DNA of 32,000 nucleotides from Halomicronema hongdechloris C2206 (GCF_002075285.3 NZ_CP021983.2:2340001-2372000), one strand, 5' to 3'. Shown: positions 2,958 through 16,342, counted from the stretch's first letter. Notes: generated by a model not told the origin, from the sequence alone. Program-made: numbers and translations.

Positions 2958-4092
2958 TCATAAGGTCGGTTTTGTTGAAGCACGCAGGCCATGGGACAGC
3001 AGGGATTCTGGGATATCGAAGAGCGCCAGCAAAAACTGGAGCAAAAGAAGGCGGTACTGAATCGGTTGAATCAACTGGTGCCGTGGGAGACCTTTCGTCC
3101 GATTCTGATGCAGATTCGAGAGAAACCGCGCAAAAGCCAGGCCGGTCGTAACCCCACCGATGTCCTGTTACTCTTCAAGATGCTGGTGCTGCAAAAGCTA
3201 TACAACATCAGCGATGACGAACTGGAATATCAGGTCAACGACCGACTGTCCTTCATGCAATTTCTCGGTTTGGGGCTTGAGGATAGAGTCCCGGATGCAA
3301 CGACGGTGTGGCTCTTCCGAGAACAGTTGCAGCAGCACGGCTTGGTGGAGGCGTTGTTCGAGCAGTTTGGAGCCTATCTGCAAGGGGCAGGCTATGCCGC
3401 CAAGGATGGGCAAATTGTGGATGCGACCTTGATTCCAGTTCCCAAACAACGCAACACCCGTGAGGAGAACCAAACCCTCAAGCAGGGTGAGGTTCCCGTT
3501 GAGTGGCAAGAGACCCCTCATCAGCTCGCGCAAAAAGATGTTGACGCCCGATGGACGAAGAAAAATGGAACGTCCCACTACGGCTACAAAAACCACATCA
3601 ATAGTGATGCCGGCTTTAAGCTCATTCGCCGTTACAGCGTCACCGATGCGTCGGTCCATGACTCGCAGGTCTTGGGCGAGTTGCTCGATGCGGATAATAG
3701 CGGCGATGGACTTTGGGCCGATAGTGCGTATCTCTCCGTGCTGATTGTCGAGGTGCTGAAATTGATAGGGTTTGAGCCGCATATAAATGAACGGGCCTAT
3801 CGCAATCGCCCCTTAAGCGAGGCCCAGAAAACCGCGAATCGAGAGCGCTCCAAAACCCGTGCCAGAGTGGAGCACATCTTCGGAGATGTCGTCACCAGCA
3901 TGGGTGGCAAGGTGGTGCGCAGCATCGGGTTAGCCCGTGCCCAGACCCAGCTAGGTCTGAAAAATCTGGTGTATAACCTGAAGCGGTTTGTGTGTCTCGA
4001 AACCCAACGTGCTGCATCGGCTGAACTGGCAAGATAATCGGACCTAAAGCCGGGAAATCGACTTAAACGTGGTCTTCCAACCCTATTTTTTT
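2927..4092 (+). mobile_element. IS5-family insertion sequence (termini only approximate)
   Basis: A single DDE transposase ORF sits between two AT-rich fragments of one interrupted gene, and the IS body is clearly more GC-rich than those flanks. Candidate ends are GGTCGG (2964) / CCAACC (4082). An 8-nt inverted match AAAAATAG / CTATTTTT lies at 2928-2935 / 4083-4090. TATGAGATCAT at 2951-2961, 40 nt before the ATG, resembles a subterminal motif I recall from E. coli IS5. No clean target-site duplication found. Confidence 0.75.
2991..4037 (+). CDS. IS5-family (IS5 group) DDE transposase
   Basis: 348-aa ORF. The N-terminal region ...LVPWETFRPIL...AGRNPTDVLLLFKMLVLQKLYNISDDELEYQVNDRLSFMQFLGL...PDATTVWLFREQL and the segments ..DATLI.., ..ADSAY.., ..RARVEHIFG.. 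align by eye with E. coli IS5 InsH-type transposases. Confidence 0.9.
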   Translation: MGQQGFWDIEERQQKLEQKKAVLNRLNQLVPWETFRPILMQIREKPRKSQAGRNPTDVLLLFKMLVLQKLYNISDDELEYQVNDRLSFMQFLGLGLEDRVPDATTVWLFREQLQQHGLVEALFEQFGAYLQGAGYAAKDGQIVDATLIPVPKQRNTREENQTLKQGEVPVEWQETPHQLAQKDVDARWTKKNGTSHYGYKNHINSDAGFKLIRRYSVTDASVHDSQVLGELLDADNSGDGLWADSAYLSVLIVEVLKLIGFEPHINERAYRNRPLSEAQKTANRERSKTRARVEHIFGDVVTSMGGKVVRSIGLARAQTQLGLKNLVYNLKRFVCLETQRAASAELAR

Positions 4093-6613
4093 GTCAAAAT
4101 GGGAAGCTTTTTTCGGTGGAATGTCTCGGACTCTCTTTGAGTCACCTTGACGGTCTCAAATGAGACGCCATTAGCTAAAGAAAACTGATTAATCGAGGTC
4201 CCCTTATATTTGTTTCCAATTTCTGTTATTGAGATGATTCTCGAAACTGGGTTTGAGTTAACGTTGACGGCAATTTCTTTAAGCCAACCTAGAATTTCTG
4301 GGGTATTCGTCCAGTGCTTTGAAAAAACTAAAATTGCACAGTAAGGTATACAAGAATCATTTGAGTGTGACAGTGATTTTAGCCAATTCAATTTCTTCGA
4401 GGTGCTGCCCCATGCTCTAACAACTGCATCAATTAATTTTAGAGCAGAGTCTTCATTTAGATAAAAACCGGATTTGATTTCTGACTCCACTTCATCTTGA
4501 ATTATTTTGAGTAGTATATCGCTAATATTTGTGATAATTTCATGGATTTTAATTGATTCAAAGAGCGCAATTAAAAATAATATATGACCTAATCTTTCTC
4601 TGCCAACAAAACGAGCTTCCTCCGGAAGGAAATCTAAGTCATATTTTTTCATTTGATACTGACCCCAGTCAATTTCCTTATGCATTAGCCATTCAAGTAG
4701 TCGACTTGAATACTTAGGAGCTATCTCTCTGTAAATAAGTTTTAAGACTTCGTGCCAGGTTTCGTCTTGCCAGTGCTGGCCAAAGACCTCATCGCGGAGT
4801 TTTTCGAAGCTGAGGGTGCGTTGTTTTTCGAAGCGGTGGACGATTTCGACGGCGCAGAAGTATTCCAGGAAGGTCGGTGCATGAAGCCGTAGGTGTCAGC
4901 GCCGCGATAGCAGAGGATGAAGTTGCGTTCCCGCAATTGCTGAATCAGCACATTGGCCTTTTCGCGGGGGTCGCTGAAGCCCTGGTCACGCAGGTAATCG
5001 GTCACAATGCGGATGAGGCGCAGCATTTCTTGTTTTTCCCGCCGTGCGATCGCATCCATCGGCAAATTCAACCGCTTGTGATCCACATCCCAGTGATACA
5101 GCAGCACTCGGGATGCCTGGTCATAGAGGTCGGCTCTGTCGCGGGGCAATTCCTGGCGTCGGTTCAGGATGGCCATCATGGTCAGCAGCAGAGGATTGTC
5201 GGCCAGGTTTTGGATGGCTTTGGAATTGGCAACGGCATCCTTCAATCTCTGTTTCAGCCGCCCCTTGTCTGGATCGCTGCCCATTGAGAGGTCATACCAG
5301 CGGTCGATGAACTCGTGGATTTCCGTCTCATCTAGCGCTTGAATCGTGAATTGGCGGAACCCAGCGTGCTGGAAGCGTTCCGGGTTATAGCCGATGATGC
5401 GGGAGGTGACCAAAACCCGCGCTAAGGGATATTGCTGGGCAAAGCGGATGATGTCGTCGATGACGGCGGCTTGGGTAGGGCGATCGAATACTTCGTCCAG
5501 ACCGTCGAACATGACCAGGGCAGGATTCTCCAGCAAGTGCTGATGGAGGTGCTGCTGGTCAAATTGCCAGTCTGCACCGCTGCCGCAGTGGAGAAAGTCT
5601 AAGAAGTTAGTAGCCTGGGCTAGGACATATTCCCGCAGCTCGATCAGCAGCGGTAACACCTCGGTTTTGCCTTCCACCCAGTCCAGAGCCAGAAACTGTA
5701 GCAATGTGGACTTGCCGGAACCCGGATCGCCCAGGATGACCGCATGCTGAGAGTCGGCGACTGCTGCCAATACCTTGCGGGCAGGTTGCTGAAAATACTC
5801 GCGGCGATACAGGTCTAACGCTTCGGCAGATAAGTCGGCTTCAAGGTGGCCGTCTTGTTGCAGTTGACGCTTCAAGTCCAGGGGCAGGTCGTAGCGAATC
5901 GGGGGCAGAGCTGCGCGCACGGTTTGTTCAATGAACAGGCGCCAGAGGTGAATGGTATCGGCCTGATAGGTACTGTCGAGGGTGTAGAGCTTCAAGTAGC
6001 CATAGCTGGTCTGCAAGCTGTGGCGATACTTAGCCACATCAAAGCCCGGTGAGAGTCGGGCCGTATTGTCAGCAATTTCCTGCAGCAGATCAGCCTCTAG
6101 GATGGCCCGCAACTCGGTATCGGCCTTGACGATGCCTTTCACCTGAATCACATATTCCTTAGCGACTCCGCGCCAGTCGAAATCCTCGGCGGGAAACTGC
6201 CAGCCGGTTACCTGGTAGCGCTCTATCCAAATACGCTCCAGTTGGGTGTGATCAATCCTTTTGCGGCCAGTCTCAAAGGCTTGGCCGAGACTGGTACAGA
6301 CCGCCGGGTCCCGCACAAATCGTTTTAGGACCGCCTGGTAATGGTGGCGGATGCTGGTGTCGGGCACCTCGTTGAACTGCAGTTCCTTGATAAATCGCTG
6401 CAGGAAAAAGCCGACAGCCTCGGCCATGGGTCGCTTCAGAGTCTCTGCCTGCAGCCGAGCCACGCCGCTATCTAGGCAGTCTCTAAAAAAGTCCTGCACG
6501 TAGCCTTCCAGGACGGGTTTGGCGAGGTCGAGCACCTGACTCAGCACGACTTTGCTAAGCTCAAGGCCGGTGGGGATGGCTAAGAGTTCCAACATGCCAG
6601 CGGTTGGGAGCAA
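4083..6613 (-). pseudogene. NACHT-family STAND NTPase with C-terminal HEAT-like repeats; frameshifted near 4875 and truncated by the IS
   Basis: Walker A GDPGSGKST, Walker B-like VMFDGLDEV, then ..TSRIIGY.. The ORF track frame ends in nonsense after GFMHR. Shifting by one base gives FMHR(T)FLEYFCAVEIVHRFEKQRTLSFEKLRDEVFGQHWQDETWHEVLKLIYREIAPKYSSRLLEWLMHKEIDW, which runs without a stop into the 4083-4685 ORF. Confidence 0.85.
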
Positions 6614-6904
6614 TGGATGGTTGTGTTCACTATGGCATTCCTGTTACCGGAGCGGCTAATCGCCGTATCGGCATGACGATCAATGGTTACCGAGATTAGG
6701 CGTCGTAGACGAGATCCCCGTGACTGCTGACAGGTGAGCCTGAAACTTGATTGATCTCGCTGTAGCCATCTCTGCTAAGGCGTTACTGAGTCAAGCGTGC
6801 TGGTTGCCCCTCGAGGGCACTCCCCATGCAGCCATGACCACAGTCGCAGCGTAAACAGATAGACCTGAGACTCATAGGATCGCGACGATCGCTTTCTGAT
6901 TTGG

Positions 6905-7262
6905 CGAAAAACGTTTAGATTTATAAGTATACTTAAGTGTTTACGACTAATGCTTAAATGTTACTTATACTTACTCAAGTATTTGGCCAATTGCTTAAGC
7001 ATTTGCCCATTTTGAGTCAGCCGCCAGGGAAACCCCCTAAGGATTTGGCTGATTTTTGACTGATTGATTAGTGGTGCTTAAGTTTCAACACTAACATATA
7101 AGCATTTGTCGAAAATGCTTAAGCGTTAAGAGCAAATGCTTAAGCGTTAAGGGCAAACGCTTAAGTTTTTGGAGCCAACTCTTAAGTTTTTGGAGCCAAC
7201 CCTTAAGTTTTAGGGCTAACGTTTGTTGGTTTGGGCCTGACGCTTCAGTCTCAGGAGCAAAT
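6905..7262. repeat. Degenerate tandem array, about 17 units of 21 bp, each centred on CTTAAG (best units GCTTAAGCGTTAAG and CTTAAGTTTTTGGAGCC)
   Basis: CTTAAG or one-mismatch variants start at 6932, 6953, 6974, 6994, 7036, 7077, 7097, 7118, 7139, 7160, 7181, 7202 and 7243. All spacings are 20-21 bp or multiples of that. Near-identical neighbouring units lie at 7112-7222. No frame has both a start and an open reading frame. Confidence 0.9.
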
Positions 7263-7354
7263 CACCGTAAATTTCGGTAGATGGCTACATCAGACGGCTA
7301 AAAGTTCCGAAAAGAAGTTCACAGCACTTGGTCTAGTGTTTCACGTCATTTGAT

Positions 7355-7507
7355 TCATGGGGCGATCAACCCTATCCTCAGCCGCGCCCCATTGGGGTAG
7401 CGACGAATCCACTGTACGTAGGTTTGCTCCGTCCGGTAAGAATAATGCTTCAGTCGAATTGCTTCGCGCACCTGGTCTAGCAGCTTTTTAGGGCGAGGGG
7501 GTTCCAT
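7355..7507 (-). pseudogene. intI: 5' remnant of an integron-type tyrosine recombinase gene (intI-like, N-terminal SAM-like domain only)
   Basis: Own translation: MEPPRPKKLLDQVREAIRLKHYSYRTEQTYVQWIRRY then PNGARLRIGLIAP*. The first 37 aa or so match the N-terminus I recall for cyanobacterial integron integrases (..LLDQVR.AIRLKHYS.RTEQ.Y..WI.R(F/Y)ILFH..). Similarity is lost after about 7395 and no catalytic domain follows. Confidence 0.65.
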
Positions 7508-7568
7508 GACGACTCAACATGCAAGTATCAAATACAACATTAATATACATATGTACTGACACTCCGAA

Positions 7569-7596
7569 GCGGAAGATATGCGGAAGATATACGGAT
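7569..7596 (+). repeat. 11-bp tandem repeat GCGGAAGATAT x2.5; a further copy ACGGAAGATTAT lies at 7673-7684
   Basis: Read directly in the divergent intergenic region between the intI remnant and the first cassette. Confidence 0.85.
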
Positions 7597-7600
7597 CCTT

Positions 7601-7746
7601 GCTGCCTATCTACCCTGCAGAAGGCTATTATGCAGACTGTTCGCTGCCTATCTACCCTCAGAGGGTGATTAGACGGAAGATTATCTGCCTATTCACCTGG
7701 AAGGGGGTATATAGGCAGATTGGATCGATCCAATAAGTTGTTAGGC
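7601..7746 (+). promoter_or_regulatory. attI-like region: three direct repeats at 42-bp spacing, a 9-bp inverted repeat and a terminal GTTAGGC core site
   Basis: GCTGCCTATCTACCCT occurs at 7601-7616 and 7643-7658, with the variant TCTGCCTATTCACCT at 7684-7698. TCTGCCTAT (7684-7692) is inverted as ATAGGCAGA (7711-7719). GTTAGGC at 7740-7746 fits GTTRRRY exactly and is preceded by CAATAAGTT. Confidence 0.55.
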
Positions 7747-7891
7747 GGCTAAATTTCCCTATTGGGAACGGCAGTCTTTCTCACGGTTCAGGCATTAATC
7801 GGCATCAAGATTTCCAGCCTACAGCTAGGGTTAAACGCGCCGCTGCAAGTGAGTGGAGCTAAGATTGAGAAGCAAGTAACTTGCCAGGACT

Positions 7892-8176
7892 ATGACTCTA
7901 AACTTAGATTTGCCACCCGAACTGGAGCAGTACCTCTTGCAAGAAGCCGAGCAGCAAGGTCTATCGGTTGAAGCAATGACCTTACAGCTTTTGACGAATT
8001 CGCTTCAACTCAGGCAACAACAAGCTGAAGCCGTTTATATGCTTCAGTCCTGGATTGACGATGAGGATGTTGAAGAGCAACAGGAGACAGGTGAGTATTT
8101 GGTTCAGGTGCTGGATGAGGATCGGCTTTCTGACCGCAAGTTATTCCCCCTCGAAATGAAAGGGGTTACATGGTAG
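7892..8176 (+). CDS. Antitoxin-like protein of a PIN-type toxin-antitoxin pair
   Basis: 94-aa acidic ORF (MTLNLDLPPELEQYLLQEAEQQGLSVEAMTLQLL...) whose stop overlaps the PIN gene start by 7 nt (ATGGTAG, 8170-8176). The palindrome CAAGTAACTTG at 7872-7882 just upstream is a possible operator. Confidence 0.7.
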   Translation: MTLNLDLPPELEQYLLQEAEQQGLSVEAMTLQLLTNSLQLRQQQAEAVYMLQSWIDDEDVEEQQETGEYLVQVLDEDRLSDRKLFPLEMKGVTW

Positions 8177-8625
8177 AGCGTTTAATCGTATTGGATACAG
8201 GGCCAATTGGCCTGGTTACCAATCCTAAGCTCTCTTCCCAAGGTGTTGCTTGTAACCAGTGGCTTCAGTCTCATCTCAAGTTGGGTGACCGCATAATCGT
8301 TCCAGAAATTGCTGATTATGAAGTGCGCCGTGAGTTATTGCGAGCCAATAAAAAGAAAGGGCTTACTCGGCTAGATAGCTTGTGTCAACGACTTGAATAT
8401 TTGCCGATTGCGACTGCCTCAATGCGGCAAGCAGCTGCACTATGGGCACAGGCGCGACAGCAGGGACAGCCAACGGCAGGGGATAAAACCATTGACGGTG
8501 ACATGATTCTGATTGCTCAGGCTAAGACTCTAGGAGACTCAGATGTGGTGATTGCCACAACTAATGTGGGGCATCTATCGAGGTTTATTGCAGCTGACTT
8601 GTGGCAGAACATTCTTCCCAATTAA
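8170..8625 (+). CDS. PIN-domain (VapC-like) toxin
   Basis: 151-aa ORF with IVLDTGPIG near the N-terminus, ..DGDMILIAQAK.. and ..VIATTNVGHLSRF.., the acidic-residue pattern typical of PIN nucleases. It is translationally coupled to the upstream small ORF. Confidence 0.75.
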   Translation: MVERLIVLDTGPIGLVTNPKLSSQGVACNQWLQSHLKLGDRIIVPEIADYEVRRELLRANKKKGLTRLDSLCQRLEYLPIATASMRQAAALWAQARQQGQPTAGDKTIDGDMILIAQAKTLGDSDVVIATTNVGHLSRFIAADLWQNILPN

Positions 8626-8630
8626 CCGCC

Positions 8631-8717
8631 ACCTAACAACCCGGCTGGAGCGGACTGCTGGGAGATCTTGGATGTGTTGCCAAGGCTGCTTGCAGCCGCT
8701 CAGCCGGAACGTTATGC
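8631..8717 (+). other. attC-like recombination site 1 (87 bp)
   Basis: R'' is ACCTAAC (8631-8637) and R' is GTTATGC (8711-8717). The left arm CCGGCTGGAGCGG pairs with the right arm CCGCTCAGCCGG, leaving one extra G in the left arm. It starts 5 nt after the PIN gene stop. Confidence 0.7.
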
Positions 8718-8758
8718 AGCAATCTGCGTTAATTTAAGATTTTCGTTTGGACAATAAT

Positions 8759-8944
8759 ATGGCAGATTTTCTGTGGGAAAAACTAGATTGCAAAAACCAG
8801 CCAACAGGGGGATTGGGTGCATGGAGAGCAAAAGTGCCTGGCGGTTGGATAATAGCCGTTCGCTGTGGCGGCGGTGAAGGTGGCGGGGTAACATTCTATC
8901 CAGATCCTAATCACCAATGGAATGGCGGCACTCTATCCTCGTGA
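8759..8944 (+). CDS. Small Gly-rich hypothetical protein (cassette 2)
   Basis: ORF MADFLWEKLDCKNQPTGGLGAWRAKVPGGWIIAVRCGGGEGGGVTFYPDPNHQWNGGTLSS. The track starts it at a TTG at 8747; the ATG at 8759 is more likely. It sits exactly between two attC-like sites. Confidence 0.45.
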   Translation: MADFLWEKLDCKNQPTGGLGAWRAKVPGGWIIAVRCGGGEGGGVTFYPDPNHQWNGGTLSS

Positions 8945-8948
8945 GTTT

Positions 8949-9008
8949 GCATAACTGGGATGCACTCCGTGGGTCTTTATTAAAAAGTTCCAGCTCATTT
9001 AATTAGCC
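8949..9008 (+). other. attC-like site 2 (short, degenerate)
   Basis: GCATAAC (8949-8955) followed by TGGGATGCAC pairs imperfectly (about 10 of 15) with GTTCCAGCTCATTTA (8987-9001). It ends in ATTAGCC (9002-9008), directly before the next ATG. Confidence 0.35.
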
Positions 9009-9377
9009 ATGGAAATCCAACGAACTATCTATGTCTTGGCGGTGCCAGATCTTGAAAAATCTGCTGAATTCTTTCGCAATGTATTAGATTTCACTATTCA
9101 CGAGATTGGCGATCAAGGATGGCGAATGTTCGCAAGAGATAATTGTCGAATAATGGCTGGACATTGTCCTGATGCTATTCGACCTAGTGAGCTTGGTGAT
9201 CATTCCTATTTCGGATACTTTGTTGTCGATGATGTAGATGATTACTATGGCATGGTTACCTCAAAGGGTGCAGAGATAATTAAACCTCTCAAGAGTGAAA
9301 AATGGGGGATGCGAGAATTTGGTGTAAGAACTATTGATGGACATCGAATTATGATTGGTCAAGATCTTGAGGAATAA
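9009..9377 (+). CDS. VOC-superfamily protein (glyoxalase/bleomycin-resistance fold)
   Basis: 122-aa ORF with a C-terminal ..KWGMREFGVRTIDGHRIMIGQ.. motif characteristic of glyoxalase/bleomycin-resistance family proteins. This is a cassette type I recall as frequent in integrons. Confidence 0.75.
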   Translation: MEIQRTIYVLAVPDLEKSAEFFRNVLDFTIHEIGDQGWRMFARDNCRIMAGHCPDAIRPSELGDHSYFGYFVVDDVDDYYGMVTSKGAEIIKPLKSEKWGMREFGVRTIDGHRIMIGQDLEE

Positions 9378-9383
9378 CTTAGT

Positions 9384-9469
9384 GCATAACAACCCTGGTG
9401 CAGCGGATTTACCGAAGCCACTTGTAAGCTTTCAGAGTTCTCGACAGCCGATGACCAGAACCATTAGCC
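9384..9469 (+). other. attC-like site 3 (86 bp)
   Basis: GCATAAC (9384-9390) is followed by AACCCTGGTGCAGCGGAT, nearly the same left arm as site 1. It pairs with AGCCGATGACCAGAACC (9446-9462) with an extra G in the left arm. The right core is degenerate: ATTAGCC (9463-9469). Confidence 0.5.
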
Positions 9470-9535
9470 AGCAAAGAGTTACCGCTGGTTTCATTCACTG
9501 TCGTGGGTAAGCCGTGCCTCTAAAAGCTCGACGTA

Positions 9536-10762
9536 ATGGAGTGTTTTATGTGGACAATTGAGCAGATCACCGTGGAAGGCGCCGTTTCCTCAGACGCATA
9601 TATGAGTGATGGAAAACCGGTGGTGGGAACTCGCCGTGGTCCCGAAGGAGCCAGTTTTCGTTTGTATGTCACCGGACGCGGCATGCTGGACATCACCGAT
9701 ACCGGCCACCAGCCGGGTGGGCCGCACTACTGGCAGTTGGTTATCAACAATCAGGTTTATTGGTATGACGGCGACGGCGGTCCGCTGATCTGGATCGGAA
9801 CTGATGGTTCCGTTAGGGTGACCGGAGACGGAAACGATGTTGGTTGTCAGTTGCTGCCTCTGCCGGAGATATTGGAAAGCGACCTTGCGCTCCTGCAACA
9901 AATGAAGTCGGAAAAGCTGATTCCCTATGGACAACTCCAACCCGGCGAACGGCCGTATTCCAGCGTGGAAGACATCGCCGCACAATACTTTGCATTTTCT
10001 CATGCGTGGTCGGACTTGGGATTGACGGTCTACGACTGGACCAGCGCCGACTTCTTTCGCATGGACATATTTCATTTGTATCGCTACACAGCGGTGGCTG
10101 GCCAGCCGCTGGATGACAATGACATTATCCAAGGGATCTGGACGTCCAATTGGCCCCCGTACACACCTCAGGATCCGACCTTCATGGCATCCTTGATGAT
10201 GTCGCCAGCTACCAGCGAGCAGCAAGTGGCTGAGCAGTATCAAGACGTGAAACGGCAGATGCAGACCTATCTGGACGCCTTGATGCGATTGACCCGCAGT
10301 TCGATGTACGCTATGCCACGAACGAGCACCTTGGCAAAGCCCATGCTCTACAGCGGACAGGTGGCCATCTCGAACCTGGGACAGGATGCCATGGCCGTCT
10401 ACTTCGAACAGTACCCCGGCAACGCGGGACCCGTCGGATCACCGATGGGCATGTCGATCGATGAAGCACTCCAGGGATTTATGAGCCCGGACAGCATGCT
10501 CACGCTTAAGTCCTTTCTGAGCTTCACTGACAGTGCTCAAGATGCCCAACATTATTCCAACGGAATTATCGTCGAAATGTCACCGCCTGTGGGGGCCGTG
10601 GTCTGGCCACAGTGCCCGTACCTCACTTCGCTGTCCAATAGCGCAACAAAGATCGAATACACTTATGCGCCCGGTAGCCAATGGGAAATCACCGGATCGC
10701 GCAAAGAGACCATCGGGAGCAAGACCTACACAGTCCTCTCGATGCGAGATTGCCTACCATGA
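9536..10762 (+). CDS. Hypothetical protein; the C-terminal approximately 150 aa resemble an ADP-ribosyltransferase (R-S-E type) fold with an atypical triad
   Basis: 408-aa ORF with GC-rich coding-like usage. Motif spacing resembles C3/VIP2-type ARTs: LYSG (aa 271-274, where Y-R-G is expected), FLSFTDS (aa 327-333, an STS-like motif) and KIEYTYAPGSQWEI (aa 372-385, where [QE]xE...G-S-x-aromatic-x-I is expected). Confidence 0.8.
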   Translation: MECFMWTIEQITVEGAVSSDAYMSDGKPVVGTRRGPEGASFRLYVTGRGMLDITDTGHQPGGPHYWQLVINNQVYWYDGDGGPLIWIGTDGSVRVTGDGNDVGCQLLPLPEILESDLALLQQMKSEKLIPYGQLQPGERPYSSVEDIAAQYFAFSHAWSDLGLTVYDWTSADFFRMDIFHLYRYTAVAGQPLDDNDIIQGIWTSNWPPYTPQDPTFMASLMMSPATSEQQVAEQYQDVKRQMQTYLDALMRLTRSSMYAMPRTSTLAKPMLYSGQVAISNLGQDAMAVYFEQYPGNAGPVGSPMGMSIDEALQGFMSPDSMLTLKSFLSFTDSAQDAQHYSNGIIVEMSPPVGAVVWPQCPYLTSLSNSATKIEYTYAPGSQWEITGSRKETIGSKTYTVLSMRDCLP

Positions 10763-10802
10763 AGAGATTGTCGCTACTCATGGTGTATCCTCGTCTGGTT
10801 TT

Positions 10803-10955
10803 GCTTAATTCAGCAGGATACGCCCTTTCCTAATTTCTCTCCATACACCAGAAATGAGCATAGCTCGGCTCCGAGAGCGATTGCCCGTTGAAACATCGAA
10901 ACTGTCAGAAAAGAGCTAGCGTGAAGATTCAATCCAACAAGGGCGCTGATTAGGA
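10803..10955 (+). other. Long imperfect inverted repeat, possible degenerate attC (site 4)
   Basis: GCTTAATTCAGC..GCCCTT (10803-10828) is inverted as AAGGGCGCTGATTAGGAGC (10939-10957). The cores TTAAT / ATTAG are off-consensus. Confidence 0.3.
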
Positions 10956-10968
10956 GCAGTACATACAT
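10810..10968 (-). CDS. Possible small hydrophobic peptide (52 aa), antisense to the cassette direction
   Basis: This is the non-overlapping distal part of track ORF 10810-11163: MYVLLLISALVGLNLHASSFLTVSMFQRAIALGAELCSFLVYGEKLGKGVSC. It has two hydrophobic stretches and no convincing RBS. Confidence 0.2.
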   Translation of the reverse strand: MYVLLLISALVGLNLHASSFLTVSMFQRAIALGAELCSFLVYGEKLGKGVSC

Positions 10969-10995
10969 CGCTACTAGTCTCACTGGAGATAAAGG

Positions 10996-11376
10996 ATGCC
11001 ATTTACTGTCACCTACAACACCGAACTCGCAATCGTCGAAACAATCTTCTTCGGACTCGTTAGTGCTGACGAAGCCGCACGTGAAATAGTTGAAAGCCAT
11101 CAACTCGCTGTCGAAAAAGATTGTCGTCTGTTCTTCACCGATCTCTCCAGGGCAGAGCTTCAATTGTCACTTGTCGATGTCTATGGGATGCCCGATACAT
11201 ATGAGAAAATGGGTTGGGAGCGGCGAGTACGGATAGCATTCATCCCGCCGTCAGGTGATGAAGGACGTCACCTTGCAGAATTCTACGAAACTGTTGGGGT
11301 GAATCGGGGCTGGACGGTGAAGATCTTTTCGAATAAGCAACAGGCTGTCCAATGGCTCATCGAGGATGTCGAATGA
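10996..11376 (+). CDS. Hypothetical protein, STAS/SpoIIAA-like by sequence pattern
   Basis: 126-aa ORF with GGAG/AAGGA upstream. Alternating beta/alpha-like pattern and a C-terminal ..FSNKQQAVQWL.. typical of STAS-like domains. This is pattern recollection only. Confidence 0.55.
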   Translation: MPFTVTYNTELAIVETIFFGLVSADEAAREIVESHQLAVEKDCRLFFTDLSRAELQLSLVDVYGMPDTYEKMGWERRVRIAFIPPSGDEGRHLAEFYETVGVNRGWTVKIFSNKQQAVQWLIEDVE

Positions 11377-11416
11377 CTCATCGCCACTGGAGGAGGATCT
11401 CTGATCCCACGGGATG

Positions 11417-11517
11417 GCATAACAAACGCATGCATTGAAGCCGCCGATCCGGTCGGGCTTCAATGGAGCATCACTTGGCGGCGGCCCGGTGATGCTGACC
11501 GTTATGCGTCACAACTT
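11417..11517 (+). other. attC-like recombination site 5 (101 bp)
   Basis: Perfectly complementary cores GCATAAC (11417-11423) and GTTATGC (11511-11517). Inner arms GCAT..GCCGCCG / CGGCGGC..ATGC pair with bulges. There is also an internal hairpin CATTGAAGCC / GGCTTCAATG. Confidence 0.65.
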
Positions 11518-11618
11518 TAGATGAAGACCAGCTAAAATTTGATCTACGTGACCGACCAATCCGAGCTGTATGAAATTTCTTTTGAAGAAGAACTAAAATC
11601 TTTTCTTACAATCGTGTT

Positions 11619-12380
11619 ATGAAGATTGAATTTGTACCATTACTGCAACTTCAGCGTGATCTCTACAGCATTCCAAGAGGTCAGGAGCGCTTTCAAACTT
11701 ATCTCGAAACAATGCTCAATGCTGGTGCTTCGGATGTTGAATTGTTGCCAATGGTGGTAATAAATCCAATGGGCAAAGCTCATATACCAGCAATGCTTGA
11801 TACCTTGCTTGCTATGAATGCCGATGCTGTAGCATCTCTTGCGATTTCAAAAGTCTTAAACCAGTTTGGTGATGTCAATAGGGCATTCAAGCTAGGATTG
11901 GTGGTTGCCGACGATCAAATGGGAGGATGGACAAATCGTTATACAAGTGAATTTAGTATCCGCTTTGAACTGCAAAATTATCTCAAGCGGGGGTGGTTAG
12001 CTGTGGTTTTATGGACAAGTGAAGTTCCATCTGCAGAAAAAGTCCGGGAAGAAACTTTAATTACCATACATCGTGTGGCGTATATCCAACGGTATGGATT
12101 TGCGCTTACATTACAAGAGATGTTGAATCAAGAAGGATATGCAATGGCAATGGCAGATTGTAGACAACCCTCTCTTGATGAAGATGATATTGCTTACACC
12201 TGCAAAGTAATCTCACCGTATCTTTCTACTCAAGATTACCCCACAATCATGGCCTGCTTGTTTGGCGACCAAGCCGCTCATTTGCTGGGATACAGACCAC
12301 ACGGTTTGAGCGAACGTGCTGGTTTAGCGTTGGCGTTACATCAAGCTCAGCATAACACTGCGCAGGAAAAGTATTTTTAA
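11619..12380 (+). CDS. Hypothetical protein (253 aa), no family recognised
   Basis: Long ORF with a coherent frame, visibly more AT-rich than the core genes, and flanked by attC-like sites 5 and 6. Confidence 0.6.
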   Translation: MKIEFVPLLQLQRDLYSIPRGQERFQTYLETMLNAGASDVELLPMVVINPMGKAHIPAMLDTLLAMNADAVASLAISKVLNQFGDVNRAFKLGLVVADDQMGGWTNRYTSEFSIRFELQNYLKRGWLAVVLWTSEVPSAEKVREETLITIHRVAYIQRYGFALTLQEMLNQEGYAMAMADCRQPSLDEDDIAYTCKVISPYLSTQDYPTIMACLFGDQAAHLLGYRPHGLSERAGLALALHQAQHNTAQEKYF

Positions 12381-12470
12381 CTGAGCGTATCGGTTCTTTG
12401 CCAGACCATTTGCAGAAAGACATTGATGACGGTTTGCGAATGGTTTTGTATCTCTAGCCGTCAGCTAATG
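12374..12470 (+). other. attC-like site 6 (degenerate)
   Basis: TTTTAACTGAGCG (12374-12386, containing the stop of the 253-aa ORF) pairs with GCCGTCAGCTAATGC (12456-12470) at about 8 of 11 positions. GTTACAA follows at 12475-12481. Confidence 0.3.
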
Positions 12471-12476
12471 CTGTCG

Positions 12477-15407
12477 TTACAAACCTGTGACAAAAAATAC
12501 AGGCAGTAAAATACCGGCAAGCACGGCAGCCATTAGCTTCTGAAACAGGAAGAATAGGCGAGTGCATCCCTCTGACTCTTCGAAGACGAAATTATGGAGA
12601 TGTTCATCCAAGTTAATGATAGGCAGCAAGATATCCAGGCTGAAGACCATCGATAACCAAGCCACGCGAAATCTCCAACCACTAAGCTTTCTTGTTGCGA
12701 AGTCAACAAAAAATGGGACGAGAATAGCAATTGCTAGAATAAAAATAATGATTGCTGGGATTTTTAGATGCGTATACAACGCAGGCACATATAACTGAAT
12801 AGCAACAAGAAAAGTCGCAAGAAATAAGAGAAGTGGCTTAAAAAATAAATGAATAGTTCTTGCCAATCCCTTTCTAGGTCGATTCAAATATGGATATTGA
12901 TGTTCTCTGATCTGATCTTCCTTGAGATTGATCAGATCTAGGGTGCCGTTACATGAACCTTTTTGATCGAAAAACCATTTTCCCGAATCTGGAAAGATAT
13001 TTTGGCCGCAGCCAAATGTCTCAATCTGCTTCGCGTTTATGATCTCAACAAGATTTTTCAGATTCTGAGTGTCTTGATGATGATTGACATAGATATAGTC
13101 AGCATTTTGCCTGCTCACTTTGTCGAGCTTAGATCCCTCAAGTATTTTTTCGAGCTCAAAGTCAGGTTCGAATTTCACATATAGGTCAAGTCTATCGAGA
13201 CCGTCATATGTCCCGATGCTAGATTTTGATTTTAGCTTAAAGAATAATATCTTTGAAATAGAGTCACTATACTTTAAAGCCTGCCTTAGACATATGTTTG
13301 GCACAGAAACTTTGTTGAATAGTGCATCTTCTAGATCTCTCGATTTGATCACCTTCTTGATTAAGTCGGATTGCTTTCTGAGAATTCGTCTAAAGGCAAG
13401 AAAGCCTCCTATCATCCAAACGATGACAAAAAGCCTGAGTGCCTTGAAACGATAGTAACTAAATCCGTATAGAAAATCACTGATGGTGAGTTGTATAAAT
13501 TTAGCGGTAAATCTGCCATTTTGCTCTTTCTCTATGAGCACTTCTAAGCGGTTACGTTTATAGAGGAGGTCTCGTTCCATATCATACTTACCCAATGATC
13601 TGGCAACCATTGCGGCTTGCTCTAGGGGTTGCAGTAGAGATTCAAGTCGTGGTAAAAGCTCACTGTCTAATGACAGGGATTCATCTAAATCCTGTTGTCT
13701 AGTTGATGCTAACCTTATGCTTGAAAGAGTTCTCACTACTCTCTGCCAGGTGGATGGAGCAGCCTTATTGTATTTAGCATCTAAGCAGCTGGTGAGCAAA
13801 CTAAAACCTGCTGAATTAGCCTTTTGATAGTGAAATCTATTTAAATCTATTAAACACTCACCTGATATTTCCTGATCCATTTCCTCATTGTCTGATTTAA
13901 TAATATTAAAACTATTAACCTGAGCGTCTTCTAGGAGTAGATCTATATTATCTGATTCATTTGTTCTTTCCTTAAAGAACAAATTCTGGAATCCTGGCTG
14001 TCTATTCTTGAAATCGAAAACTACGTTACTAGCGACCATATTATCTAAGTCAAGCCTTATTTGATCAGGTGTTTCTTTATCAAAGATAAGCATGAAATCG
14101 TTGATTTCAGAGTCAGATAAGTTAATACTATGATTTGAGAAATCACCACTTAAAATGATGTCGCGACCTTGAAGGGATTCTAAATTTATCTCGGAACTCT
14201 CATTGTTGCTCGCACGTCCATTACCCTTAAGAATGACATTCCTCAAGAAGAGATCACCTTGAAGAGTAATATTATTGATGAAAATACCTCCCTCAAATTG
14301 AGATCCATCCAGATTCAAGCTTCTTAGGAAATTAGACTTATAAAGTCTAACCGATTTCCTGAATACCGAATCCTTTAGCTGTAGTTCTTGTTCGATATCA
14401 GACGATGACAGATCTAACTCTTCGTTGAAATATGCTCCTCGAGTGATAACTGTTCCAGGTAAAGCACTACGAAAGGGCTCTCGTAATAGAATCGTCTTCA
14501 AGAAATTATTGCCAACGGAGTACTTATTTAAGTATTCCTGAAAGTTAATCCGAGATCCTGATTCGGCTTCTGTTTTTTTCTCTGAAAGGTCGAGGACTGC
14601 ATCCCAGAAGGCTTGGTGCTTTTCCTTCAGCAAGCCAGAAAGTTTATTGTAATCTTCCTTATTACTGTCTACTATATTTCTTAAAGTCCCTTCGTTTTCG
14701 TAAATCAAAGATGCAGTTGAGTATTCTTTGTCTGTTTGGCTAGTCAGGATTTGTACGAGCTCAGATAGCTTAATTAGAAATGATTTTTCCTCCGGGCGTT
14801 TAGAGTTATTCTCTATAAGAAATTTGAGAGACGTTTCTAGCGGTACATCTGAAGCCAGATTAAATAAGGCACTTAGTAATTTATCTGATTTAGGTCTCTC
14901 GATGTCTTCTTGCAATGCAGAATTCAACTGAATTCGATACTCTGCAATCAAGCCAGTGTAGTCAAAATTCTCATGATCAAAGTTTTCATTCAGTAATTGA
15001 CTATTGTTTTCTACTAGGTCTCTAATAATTAGGGCACTTAAAAAGATTTTATGGAAATTGGCTTCCTGACCAGCACAGACATGTCGCCAAATCCAGCGTT
15101 CAGGAAACCCCCACGTATCTCTTGCATGCCTCTCTTGAGGAGTTAACTCTTTCGATTTGGTTTCGTGGCGGTCTAATACAATACACTCGAATTGACCTGG
15201 AATTAACTGCGGTGGATAGGGGAATGTCTTAGTGCGCTCTAGTTCAGCAGCCTGTTGCGGTGTATTAGTCTGTTGAGGTGCAGTTGTCGGAGACTGTTGT
15301 GCGAATATTGGAGACCACAGCGATCCTGCTGCAATCGATAGCCAGCAGGCCGATAGTAAAATTGCAATAAATCTATAGGCGATCTGTCTGGTATGGTGAC
15401 TCAGCAT
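12477..15407 (-). CDS. Large secreted/membrane protein (976 aa): signal peptide, helical region, beta-helix/pentapeptide-like repeats, C-terminal multi-TM region
   Basis: An uninterrupted 2.9-kb ORF in very AT-rich DNA (17/60 GC at 13861-13920). N-terminal signal FIAILLSACWLSIAAGSLWSPIFA. Repeats such as LRSLNLDGSQFEGGIFINNITLQGDLFLRNVILKG. Hydrophobic helices occur near aa 650-680 and in the last approximately 150 aa. Confidence 0.8.
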   Translation of the reverse strand: MLSHHTRQIAYRFIAILLSACWLSIAAGSLWSPIFAQQSPTTAPQQTNTPQQAAELERTKTFPYPPQLIPGQFECIVLDRHETKSKELTPQERHARDTWGFPERWIWRHVCAGQEANFHKIFLSALIIRDLVENNSQLLNENFDHENFDYTGLIAEYRIQLNSALQEDIERPKSDKLLSALFNLASDVPLETSLKFLIENNSKRPEEKSFLIKLSELVQILTSQTDKEYSTASLIYENEGTLRNIVDSNKEDYNKLSGLLKEKHQAFWDAVLDLSEKKTEAESGSRINFQEYLNKYSVGNNFLKTILLREPFRSALPGTVITRGAYFNEELDLSSSDIEQELQLKDSVFRKSVRLYKSNFLRSLNLDGSQFEGGIFINNITLQGDLFLRNVILKGNGRASNNESSEINLESLQGRDIILSGDFSNHSINLSDSEINDFMLIFDKETPDQIRLDLDNMVASNVVFDFKNRQPGFQNLFFKERTNESDNIDLLLEDAQVNSFNIIKSDNEEMDQEISGECLIDLNRFHYQKANSAGFSLLTSCLDAKYNKAAPSTWQRVVRTLSSIRLASTRQQDLDESLSLDSELLPRLESLLQPLEQAAMVARSLGKYDMERDLLYKRNRLEVLIEKEQNGRFTAKFIQLTISDFLYGFSYYRFKALRLFVIVWMIGGFLAFRRILRKQSDLIKKVIKSRDLEDALFNKVSVPNICLRQALKYSDSISKILFFKLKSKSSIGTYDGLDRLDLYVKFEPDFELEKILEGSKLDKVSRQNADYIYVNHHQDTQNLKNLVEIINAKQIETFGCGQNIFPDSGKWFFDQKGSCNGTLDLINLKEDQIREHQYPYLNRPRKGLARTIHLFFKPLLLFLATFLVAIQLYVPALYTHLKIPAIIIFILAIAILVPFFVDFATRKLSGWRFRVAWLSMVFSLDILLPIINLDEHLHNFVFEESEGCTRLFFLFQKLMAAVLAGILLPVFFVTGL

Positions 15408-15615
15408 TGATCGTTAGGATGCGATTTTGCCGGATAGCTGGCTATGTTTCTAGCTTGATTCGCCATGGAATCCTCATGGCCCAGGCTAGTTAAGGGCACT
15501 AGAAAAACCGGCACTCTTATATGCCGTACAGCTATCGTGCCTATAGGTTAATTATTCGAGGACTAAAGGAAATCACCCTCGTGGGTACTGTTTCGCTGCG
15601 GGGCAGACTCGTGCA

Positions 15616-16342
15616 TTGGAATGGGGCCTATTGGGGGTCACCTGGCTAGGCGTCTTGACCCCGATGGCACCTCCCTTGGCCACGCGATTTCTCGTAATCA
15701 CCAGCCTGGGCGTGCTTGGCTTTGGGATCTTGGGGCTTTACCTACCCACCCAAGCTCGATGGGGACGCATCGGCCATGTGCTGGCCCAGTTTCTGTTGAT
15801 TTTTGTGGCTACAGCCATTGGGCAGGCGGAGTTTCGCCTATTTCCCTTGCTTTATCTGATACTGGTCATCCGCAGCTGTTTTATGTTTGCTCTACTGGGG
15901 CGGGTGATGGTGAGTGCCCTGGCCTTTTTGATGTTTCTGGTGGGATTGCACCTACGCCTACAGGCCCTCAGGGGCCAGGTGCCGCCGCAGTTGGTGGGGC
16001 GGCTGCAGCCCTTTCTATTTGGCATGAACCTGAATGTCAGTATTCTGTTTGCCCTGCTGCTAGGCTTCATGCTGTTGCTGGTCAATGCCCTGTTGGCCGA
16101 GCGCCAGGGCCGGGAGCAACTGCACCAGGTGAATCAAGAACTGCGGCGTTCTGCCCGTCAGGGAGATTCTACGGTGGTTGGCCCAGGGAGCTAGTAATCG
16201 AGAAATAGCAAGTGCCCTCTACATCTCAGAGGGCACTGTCAAAAATCATGTGACCAGTGTGCTAAATCGGCTCAACTTGCGAGACCGCACCCAAGCAGCA
16301 CTGTTCGCCGTGTCGGTGCGATCGCATCTAGAAGACCCCTAA
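15616..16342 (+). pseudogene. Deletion remnant of a NarL-type two-component operon: sensor-kinase membrane N-terminus joined out of frame to the LuxR-type HTH of the response regulator
   Basis: Frame 1 gives a 5-6 TM region ending ..LLAERQGREQLHQVNQELRRSA and stops at 16194. Frame 2 from about 16151 gives [63 protein letters not shown] (a GerE/LuxR HTH). No HisKA_3/HATPase or receiver domain lies between them. Confidence 0.7.

Follow-up and report, generated by a model that had tools for sequence, protein, structure and literature searches.

What survives of an integron when its integrase gene has been lost, and how far can the cassettes left behind be traced? The question is raised by a locus of the cyanobacterium Halomicronema hongdechloris C2206 (chromosome of 5.58 Mb). 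We analysed a stretch of 32,000 nucleotides of this chromosome (NZ_CP021983.2:2340001-2372000), here called the window, whose positions are counted from its first letter. An original prediction, made from the sequence alone, had placed a degenerate chromosomal integron at 7355-15420, with a truncated integrase gene intI, an attI-like site, six attC-like sites and mostly uncharacterised cassettes. The analysis supports this proposal in a shorter form. With a probability of roughly 0.9, judged from sequence comparisons, the locus is the relic of a chromosomal integron from the cyanobacterial/Chloroflexi IntI clade, its integrase having been destroyed, that is, a cluster of attC sites lacking an integron integrase (CALIN). 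The evidence consists of an IntI-specific gene fragment, an attI platform and three attC sites, and the interval stands up to position 11507, where the third of these sites ends; the part from 11.5 to 15.4 kb is not demonstrably integron.

The recombinase remnant

The minus-strand open reading frame (ORF) of 50 codons at 7355-7507 is present with the N-terminus quoted for it and is exactly the protein ASC71260.1; homology to IntI is limited to residues 1 to 36, encoded at 7397-7507 on the minus strand, and the tail down to 7355 is unrelated to IntI. The first 36 to 37 residues match PF13495, the SAM-like N-terminal domain of tyrosine recombinases (Pfam, E 6.5e-9). Because the fragment spans only this generic domain, the locus could be imagined to hold a relic of a Xer or phage integrase next to chance palindromes, terminators or host repeats, with no integron at all. 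However, the NCBIfam matches at E <= 1 are solely the integron-integrase models NF011946 (E 2.8e-9) and TIGR02249 (E 4.6e-7), models of Xer or phage integrases are absent at this threshold, and the closest full-length relatives are bona fide IntI proteins. In tblastn searches of the window, residues 1 to 36 are 91-94% identical to three of four full-length cyanobacterial IntI queries, all of which score 458-478 bits on TIGR02249 (cut-off 265). The comparison with Xer and phage integrases, which had been suggested as a check, thus supports the assignment of the remnant to IntI. With 29.5 bits on TIGR02249, the fragment itself stays far below the cut-off, and the locus does not qualify as a complete integron.

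Because neither tblastn with the four full-length IntI proteins (32 kb, outside 7397-7507) nor a three-frame translation of 6500-7520 revealed any further IntI remnant, intI can be taken to end after codon 36, the remainder of the gene having been deleted. The breakpoint at 7396/7397 was set by alignment to locus L093, a relative described below, which retains nine codons more. Weak tblastn matches of IntI at 15600-15866 (E 2.5-4.7) were dismissed as noise, and no Pfam model matches there; by eye, this region resembles the remnant of a membrane-protein gene, just upstream of a LuxR/GerE fragment. Two adjoining, CTTAAG-rich 21-bp tandem repeats (2.5 and 2.7 copies) at 7113-7211 (and 6900-7230) occupy the place of the lost part of intI. 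H. hongdechloris encodes a second truncated IntI N-terminal fragment, ASC71819.1 (55 amino acids, 94% identical), about 560 protein accessions away.

The best 120 matches of the first protein search were short IntI fragments, and a stand-alone conserved N-terminal module was therefore considered; it was rejected, as the fragments end at scattered points and a full-length intI is found at most related loci. When GTDB genomes were searched with aligned IntI N-termini, 80 loci were obtained, mostly from filamentous cyanobacteria and Chloroflexi, and about 50 of these carry a full-length intI ORF of about 320 codons.

The attI region

An attI region was recognised at 7586-7746 on the plus strand, divergent from intI. 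It is made of four units phased at 41 bp, which start at about 7586, 7627, 7668 and 7709, and ends in the core GTTAGGC at 7740-7746, 233 bp from the intI start codon; the core and the phased repeats ahead of it are as the original prediction had placed them. Within each unit, a core-like TTAKRC is combined with CTGCCTA, which resembles an inverse core. The phasing is seen in the annotated repeats (D5, I5 and I6), in an exact 16-nt repeat with a spacing of 42 bp and in the autocorrelation of the block, whose best offset is 41 bp. The four units are homologous to the attI zones of relatives with an intact intI, which show the same layout upstream of intI and terminate in CTAATAAnnnGTTAGRC. Across the related loci, the unit motif has a 46-fold higher density in the 350 bp ahead of intI than in the remaining sequence. 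When 64 attI zones from the 300 bp upstream of intI at L011-L090 are taken together, their autocorrelation is highest at offsets of 40-41 bp and rises again at 82-83 bp, overlaid by a ripple of roughly 10 bp. Since the units resemble core sites, they are predicted to bind IntI. We know of no description in the literature of attI repeats phased at 40-41 bp and composed of inverted core-like pairs.

The spacer between intI and attI (7508-7585) is the presumed promoter zone. Its part from 7508 to 7560 is roughly 90% identical to L093, and it carries an 11-bp tandem repeat, GCGGAAGATAT, in 2.5 copies, which Tandem Repeats Finder places at 7569-7595.

The consensus of the cyanobacterial LexA box is RGTACNNNDGTWCB. 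A strict match to it lies in the 100 bp upstream of intI in four of 78 loci (L031, L041, L055 and L058), about 65-fold over background, and the window contains no such match. The motif was not tested for cyanobacterial integrons in PMC3108266.

A shared platform with different cassettes

The nearest homologue of the intI fragment, protein P0002, is encoded at L093 on a 487-kb metagenomic contig of a cyanobacterium (ENA ERZ926289). Window positions 7397-7751 are 82.6% identical to this locus over 356 bp; the similarity starts exactly at the breakpoint of the window's intI and stops a few bases past the attI core. The first cassette of L093 differs from that of the window and is followed by an attC site of 69.6 bits. 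A common platform beyond whose recombination point the cassettes differ is the signature of past integron activity. The variation of cassettes over a fixed platform, for which a comparison with sister genomes had been suggested, was thereby found, with the qualification that L093 is a metagenomic relative and not a sister genome.

Several relatives show other modes of intI loss. At L093 (9799-10171), intI is truncated after codon 45 and attI is intact. At L094 (10010-10284), an internal deletion that looks in frame removed residues 76-301, joining residue 75 to 302, and no attC site lies nearby. L004 (10360-11116), from a cyanobacterium with the same S21 protein as that encoded in the window, is a decayed integron directly beside rpsU; it retains a C-terminal IntI remnant of residues ~177-311 on the minus strand and one attC site of 53 bits on the plus strand, its polarity relative to rpsU being opposite to that in the window. 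Taken together with the window, these loci show that intI has been destroyed independently in at least four ways while attI and attC sites linger.

The attC sites

To search for attC sites, a covariance model, R1, was built from an alignment (A2) of six attC sites from L015 and L058, leaving out the window sequence. L015 is a Synechococcales metagenome-assembled genome with an intact IntI and a textbook attC array. The modelled structure consists of an R box of 7 bp, a spacer of 3x3 nt, 6 bp, a bulge, 6 bp, a second bulge and 3 bp. On both strands of 968 kb from the 80 related loci, R1 yielded 54 matches at E <= 0.01, every one of them upstream of intI and on the cassette strand, opposite to intI. 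These 54 sites (alignment A3, L015-L084) served to build a further model, R2, which gave a single match on 200 kb of unrelated S21 neighbourhoods, beside a C-terminal IntI remnant. Among the 54 sites, 89.5% of the cells are paired as compared to 69% in shuffled alignments, and compensatory changes occur in 17 of the 22 pairs, figures that come from an alignment fitted to the model.

Both models were run over the full 32 kb of the window with filters off and returned the same three sites, all on the plus strand, which begin 6, 7 and 41 nt past the stop codons of the PIN, VOC and 126-amino-acid ORFs described below. The reverse-strand echo of the palindromic first site scores 24 bits (E 0.00036), and the next-best match in the window has an E value of 0.22. 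The covariance-model search proposed for these sites thus came out in their favour, with E values of 5e-20, 2.8e-8 and 2.4e-5 from models free of window sequence; of the six attC sites claimed, three are supported. A CALIN is recognised by two or more attC sites that share a strand and are separated by less than 4 kb from one to the next; according to the clade models (83.1, 39.4 and 28.5 bits), the locus has three such sites. Rfam families at the gathering threshold gave nothing in the window.

Site 1 (8631-8717, plus strand) is structurally intact. It scores 79.5 bits with R1 (E 8e-21) and 83.1 bits with R2 (E 5e-20), all 22 pairs of the R2 structure are standard, and it shows the complete set of attC features, namely an R box of 7 bp, an unpaired spacer of 3x3 nt and an L stem in which 6 bp lie between two extrahelical bases. 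Its bottom strand folds into the canonical hairpin (-24.2 kcal/mol, z = -3.8). The site is 86.6% identical to an attC site upstream of the intI of L058, which carries a different gene.

Site 2 (9384-9469, plus strand; R1 30.7 bits, E 1.5e-6; R2 39.4 bits, E 2.8e-8) is decayed. Six of its 22 pairs are broken, and its right core, which had been described as GTTRRRY, is ATTAGCC and has lost the conserved G of GTT. Shuffled sequences fold just as well as the bottom strand of this site (z = +0.4). Four attC sites of L015 match it in the left arm, and it is 74% identical to the L093 attC. As predicted, sites 1 and 2 share the left arm AACCC(G/T)G(C/G)TG(G/C)AGCGGA, with one extra G in each left arm.

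Site 3 (11417-11507, plus strand; R1 18.1 bits, E 0.0075; R2 28.5 bits, E 2.4e-5) is atypical. It combines a perfect R box of 7 bp, GCATAAC/GTTATGC, with a partial L box containing a bulged G; its fold is stable (z = -3.8) but forms a three-way junction, the interior consisting of two hairpins. The model ends this site at 11507 and not at 11517, as had been given. Folding of the bottom strands, another suggested check, therefore confirmed the canonical hairpin for site 1, whereas site 2 has no stable fold and site 3 a three-way junction. The core GTTATGC departs from the strict GTTRRRY consensus that had been claimed, and a T at the deviating position is found in 18 of the 54 clade attC sites. 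A strict RYYYAAC...GTTRRRY regular expression recovered site 1 alone, since the cores of this clade deviate from the consensus.

The R1 and R2 models with filters off and half-site hidden Markov models (HMMs) identified no attC site after the 65-, 408-, 253- and 976-amino-acid ORFs. The heptamer GCATAAC occurs four times on the plus strand of the 32 kb (8949, 9384, 11417 and 12350), each time at or near the 3' end of a plus-strand ORF in the array region. Those at 9384 and 11417 are the R'' boxes of supported attC sites; neither the half-site HMMs nor the covariance models support those at 8949 and 12350 as attC vestiges.

With these sites at hand, the explanation by chance palindromes and an unrelated recombinase relic can be judged. 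The marginal R1 score of site 3 would fit it; however, independent attC models match the window down to an E value of 5e-20 and on the expected strand only, and neither the architecture of attI nor its homology to the L093 platform would be expected. We regard this explanation as effectively refuted.

Several points weigh against the interpretation as an integron remnant. A promoter and terminator scan of the window gave nothing above shuffled expectation, and no Pc promoter was detected. R1 and R2 are clade-specific models, distinct from the general attC model of IntegronFinder, and the pairing statistics that speak for the clade sites share the dependence on the fitted alignment mentioned above. 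Site 3 is low-scoring and has a non-canonical fold. Finally, two of the three cassettes hold two ORFs each, which requires the extra assumption of lost attC sites.

Proposed history of the locus

Drawing on the mechanism of integrons (PMC4889954, PMC5027507), the following history can be proposed. An intact IntI, transcribed leftwards, would have bound the repeat-rich attI and recombined the folded, single-stranded attC sites of circular cassettes into attI, between the G and the TT of the core at 7740/7741. Promoterless cassettes would have been stacked in this way on the plus strand. The deletion of intI past codon 36 has since frozen the platform, and decay or loss of attC sites would have fused neighbouring cassettes, which would explain the units with two ORFs at 8712-9463 and 9464-11501. 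The locus would consequently be unable to rearrange by itself any longer, and site 1 alone looks competent for an IntI supplied in trans.

An IntI acting in trans is central to a second interpretation, in which the locus is a functional CALIN and a working reservoir, its cassettes being excised and reshuffled by an intact IntI that comes from another genomic location or from a mobile element. Mobilisation of CALIN cassettes in trans has been proposed (PMC4889954), site 1 is structurally perfect (83 bits, 22 of 22 pairs standard) and attI is well preserved relative to L093. However, site 2 lacks the conserved G of GTT and a fold, site 3 lacks a full L box, the other IntI-like product seen from this genome (ASC71819.1) is truncated as well, and several relatives show independent decay of intI. 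We consider a reservoir still at work unlikely. The interpretation as a remnant with a destroyed integrase is preferred, and seen in this way, the degenerate integron is real but of an ordinary kind; it is smaller in extent than had been claimed and leaves the understanding of integrons unchanged. It adds one more documented case of integron decay in filamentous cyanobacteria. The annotation, which currently reads 'integrase/recombinase' and hypothetical proteins, should be changed to integron remnant (delta-intI, attI, three attC).

Cassettes and their cargo

All sizeable ORFs between 7892 and 12380 lie on the plus strand, as had been noted. Cassette 1 (7741-8711, 971 bp, plus strand) is bounded by the attI core and the recombination point between the G and the TT of the first attC site. 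It encodes an antitoxin of 94 amino acids resembling ribbon-helix-helix (RHH) proteins (7892-8176) and a PIN toxin (8170-8625), whose ORFs overlap by 7 nt in the layout of VapBC pairs. The similarity of the upstream protein to RHH (FitA-like) antitoxins is weak (E 0.013), the PIN domain PF01850 is just above its cut-off (23.9 versus 23.6 bits), and none of the NCBIfam VapC models reaches its cut-off on the PIN protein. Cassette 2 (8712-9463, 752 bp, plus strand) carries an ORF of 65 codons without any matches (8747-8944) and a gene for a VOC/glyoxalase-family protein (9009-9377; Pfam PF00903, E 2e-15); it may consist of two fused cassettes. Both the PIN toxin-antitoxin pair, with its PIN match just over the cut-off, and the VOC protein can thus be kept from the cargo originally listed.

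Cassette 3 (9464-11501, 2038 bp, plus strand) encodes a protein of 404 amino acids with a predicted ADP-ribosyltransferase (ART) fold (9548-10762, XM38_022160) and a protein of 126 amino acids (10996-11376, XM38_022170). The covariance models found no attC site between the two ORFs, and the cassette is probably composite; loss of intervening attC sites would best explain the cassettes with two ORFs. An AlphaFold2 model of the 404-amino-acid protein, based on an alignment of 43 sequences, reached a predicted local distance difference test (pLDDT) score of 92.7, and the top 35 PDB matches of this model in Foldseek are all ADP-ribosyltransferase toxins (Plx2A, VIP2, Tre1, Certhrax, C3 and iota; E about 1e-7). 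PF03496 is weakly matched by eight of the 43 family members. E370 is invariant in the family and R258 and S325 are nearly so, the assignment of these residues to the R-S-E motif having been made by eye and being tentative; K368 occupies the position at which E or Q is expected in the ExE motif. The confident structure model backs the ART-like character that had been suggested, and the protein is a candidate toxin.

The family of this protein comprises about 95 members without a Pfam model, scattered over Phycisphaerae, several Proteobacteria and three Aspergillus species, and the gene is found in unrelated contexts elsewhere. A homologue that is 84% identical (L091:10001-11245) lies between two giant TIR-CHAT-STAND genes, a context that hints at a role in conflict or defence. 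A family of ART-fold proteins of about 400 amino acids, for which no Pfam model exceeds its threshold and which is now seen in a cassette array, is a reasonable candidate for a toxin family.

The second product of cassette 3 had been called STAS-like. This name survives as the UniRef name of the 126-amino-acid protein (STAS/SEC14 domain protein), which is its sole support: no Pfam, NCBIfam or PDB sequence match was obtained, the protein has one other homologue, and an AlphaFold model from the single sequence (pLDDT 50) is too poor for a fold search. PADLOC defence models did not match the cargo proteins, searches of PHROGs and of PDB sequences were uninformative for them, and none of them has a homologue in 90 related loci. 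The lack of such homologues and the unrelated contexts of the ART-like gene speak for a mobile cargo.

Extent of the array and its surroundings

Beyond site 3, the next unit (11502-12476, plus strand) contains an ORF of 253 codons (11619-12380). It has no attC site of its own, and its membership in the array is uncertain. The protein belongs to a family with 834 representatives at E <= 1e-3 and has no Pfam match. It is followed by a gene for a membrane protein of 976 amino acids, which spans 2.9 kb on the opposite strand. The predicted jumps in GC content between units were borne out: the values are 0.49, 0.43, 0.53, 0.42 and 0.39 by unit, as compared to about 0.56 in the right flank. The last two values belong to the 253-codon unit and the block with the membrane-protein gene, and low GC extends to 15407, beyond which it is 0.55-0.56. 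Because of this difference, the block from 11.5 to 15.4 kb is probably foreign.

The integron might accordingly reach to about 15.4 kb, as originally predicted, with both genes being cassettes whose attC sites have eroded. Besides the low GC content up to 15407, a GCATAAC at 12350, near the end of the 253-codon ORF, and the distribution of the HIP1 octamer, GCGATCGC, are compatible with this extent. The octamer had been reported absent from 6.6 to 15.6 kb, and the gap actually runs from 5046 to 16318; with only eight HIP1 sites in the whole window, it is weak evidence. However, the covariance models, run with filters off, have no match between 11508 and 15600 at a threshold as loose as E <= 10, the half-site HMMs find nothing at 12350, an oppositely oriented gene of 2.9 kb is atypical for a cassette, and an unrelated insertion that truncated the array would explain the low GC content equally well. 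The longer extent is therefore improbable, even more so than a reservoir still at work. Nothing ties the 253- and 976-amino-acid genes to the integron as cassettes, and the array ends at 11507.

The neighbourhood shows signs of general instability and local genome flux. A transposase of an insertion sequence (DDE_Tnp_1 and DUF772) is encoded at 2991-4037, and an NNH2-NACHT NTPase at 4742-6613 has last ~45 residues that look out of frame. On the other side, 15616-16342 comprises two overlapping frame-shifted ORFs, followed by a LuxR/GerE helix-turn-helix fragment of 54 amino acids that adjoins rpsU.

Comparison with known integrons

Cyanobacterial integrons have been listed before (PMC4889954, PMC2426708), and an attC covariance model specific to Cyanobacteria has been published (PMC8352920); integrons are thus less sparsely described in this phylum than had been stated. 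The classes of integrons and CALIN were defined with IntegronFinder by Cury et al. 2016 (PMC4889954). Like the CALIN of that study, the window locus carries cassettes mostly of unknown function, including a toxin-antitoxin pair; it differs from them in that an attI can still be recognised and that 111 nt remain of the 5' end of intI. Pseudogenes of intI were found near 15 of the 279 CALIN (PMC4889954). The pipeline of Cury et al. would not flag the remnant in the window, because its test targets the C-terminal domain, which is absent here.

The closest intact systems are those of L015 (JAAFJU010000028.1), L039 (Leptolyngbya sp. PCC 7375) and L046 (Nodosilinea sp. LEGE 07088). Their IntI N-termini are 78-94% identical to that of the window, their attC sites have the same consensus (YTAAC-AA-N, an L'' arm ending in TG(C/G)AGCGG-A, then CCGCT ... 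C-GTTAKRC), and their attI regions likewise consist of repeats phased at 40-41 bp and end in CTAATAAnnnGTTAGRC. In contrast, the window retains 36 codons of intI, shows damage in two of its three attC sites and has no cassette protein in common with these loci. L093 has in common with the window a truncated platform and an attC site after the first cassette; however, its intI is cut at codon 45 instead of 36, its flanking genes differ, and its cassettes encode a GvpU-like protein, a MazEF pair, an amylase and an unrelated glyoxalase.

The attI1 site of class 1 integrons has two accessory direct repeats, whereas the attI of the window has four phased units. The attC sites of the clade resemble the canonical attC sites of class 1 mobile integrons and the Vibrio VCR (Nivina et al. 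2016, PMC5027507) in having an R box, an unpaired central spacer and an L box. The extrahelical bases of the clade sites lie opposite the AAC arm, a stem of 6 bp separates the first from the last, and the distal one is a T, as described in PMC5027507. On the top strand, the bulged bases are a G in 53 and an A in 50 of the 54 clade sites, corresponding to C and T on the bottom strand. For the extrahelical base that adjoins L'', PMC5027507 gives 'usually a G' on the bottom strand, whereas the proximal one of the clade is a C, and the spacer has 3 nt per arm in the clade as compared to 5-6 in PMC5027507.

Neither these differences in attC bases and spacer nor the phased attI are peculiar to the window locus; they characterise the clade. 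The inverted core-like pairs would suggest a higher-order assembly of IntI on attI. It is conceivable, although we put this forward only tentatively, that the clade uses an undescribed mode of recognition, in which an attI of three to five units of 40-41 bp (four helical turns), each an inverted core-like pair, is combined with attC sites that have a 3-nt spacer and C/T instead of G/T as extrahelical bases. If this were true, the clade would represent a natural experiment on how IntI reads two kinds of site.

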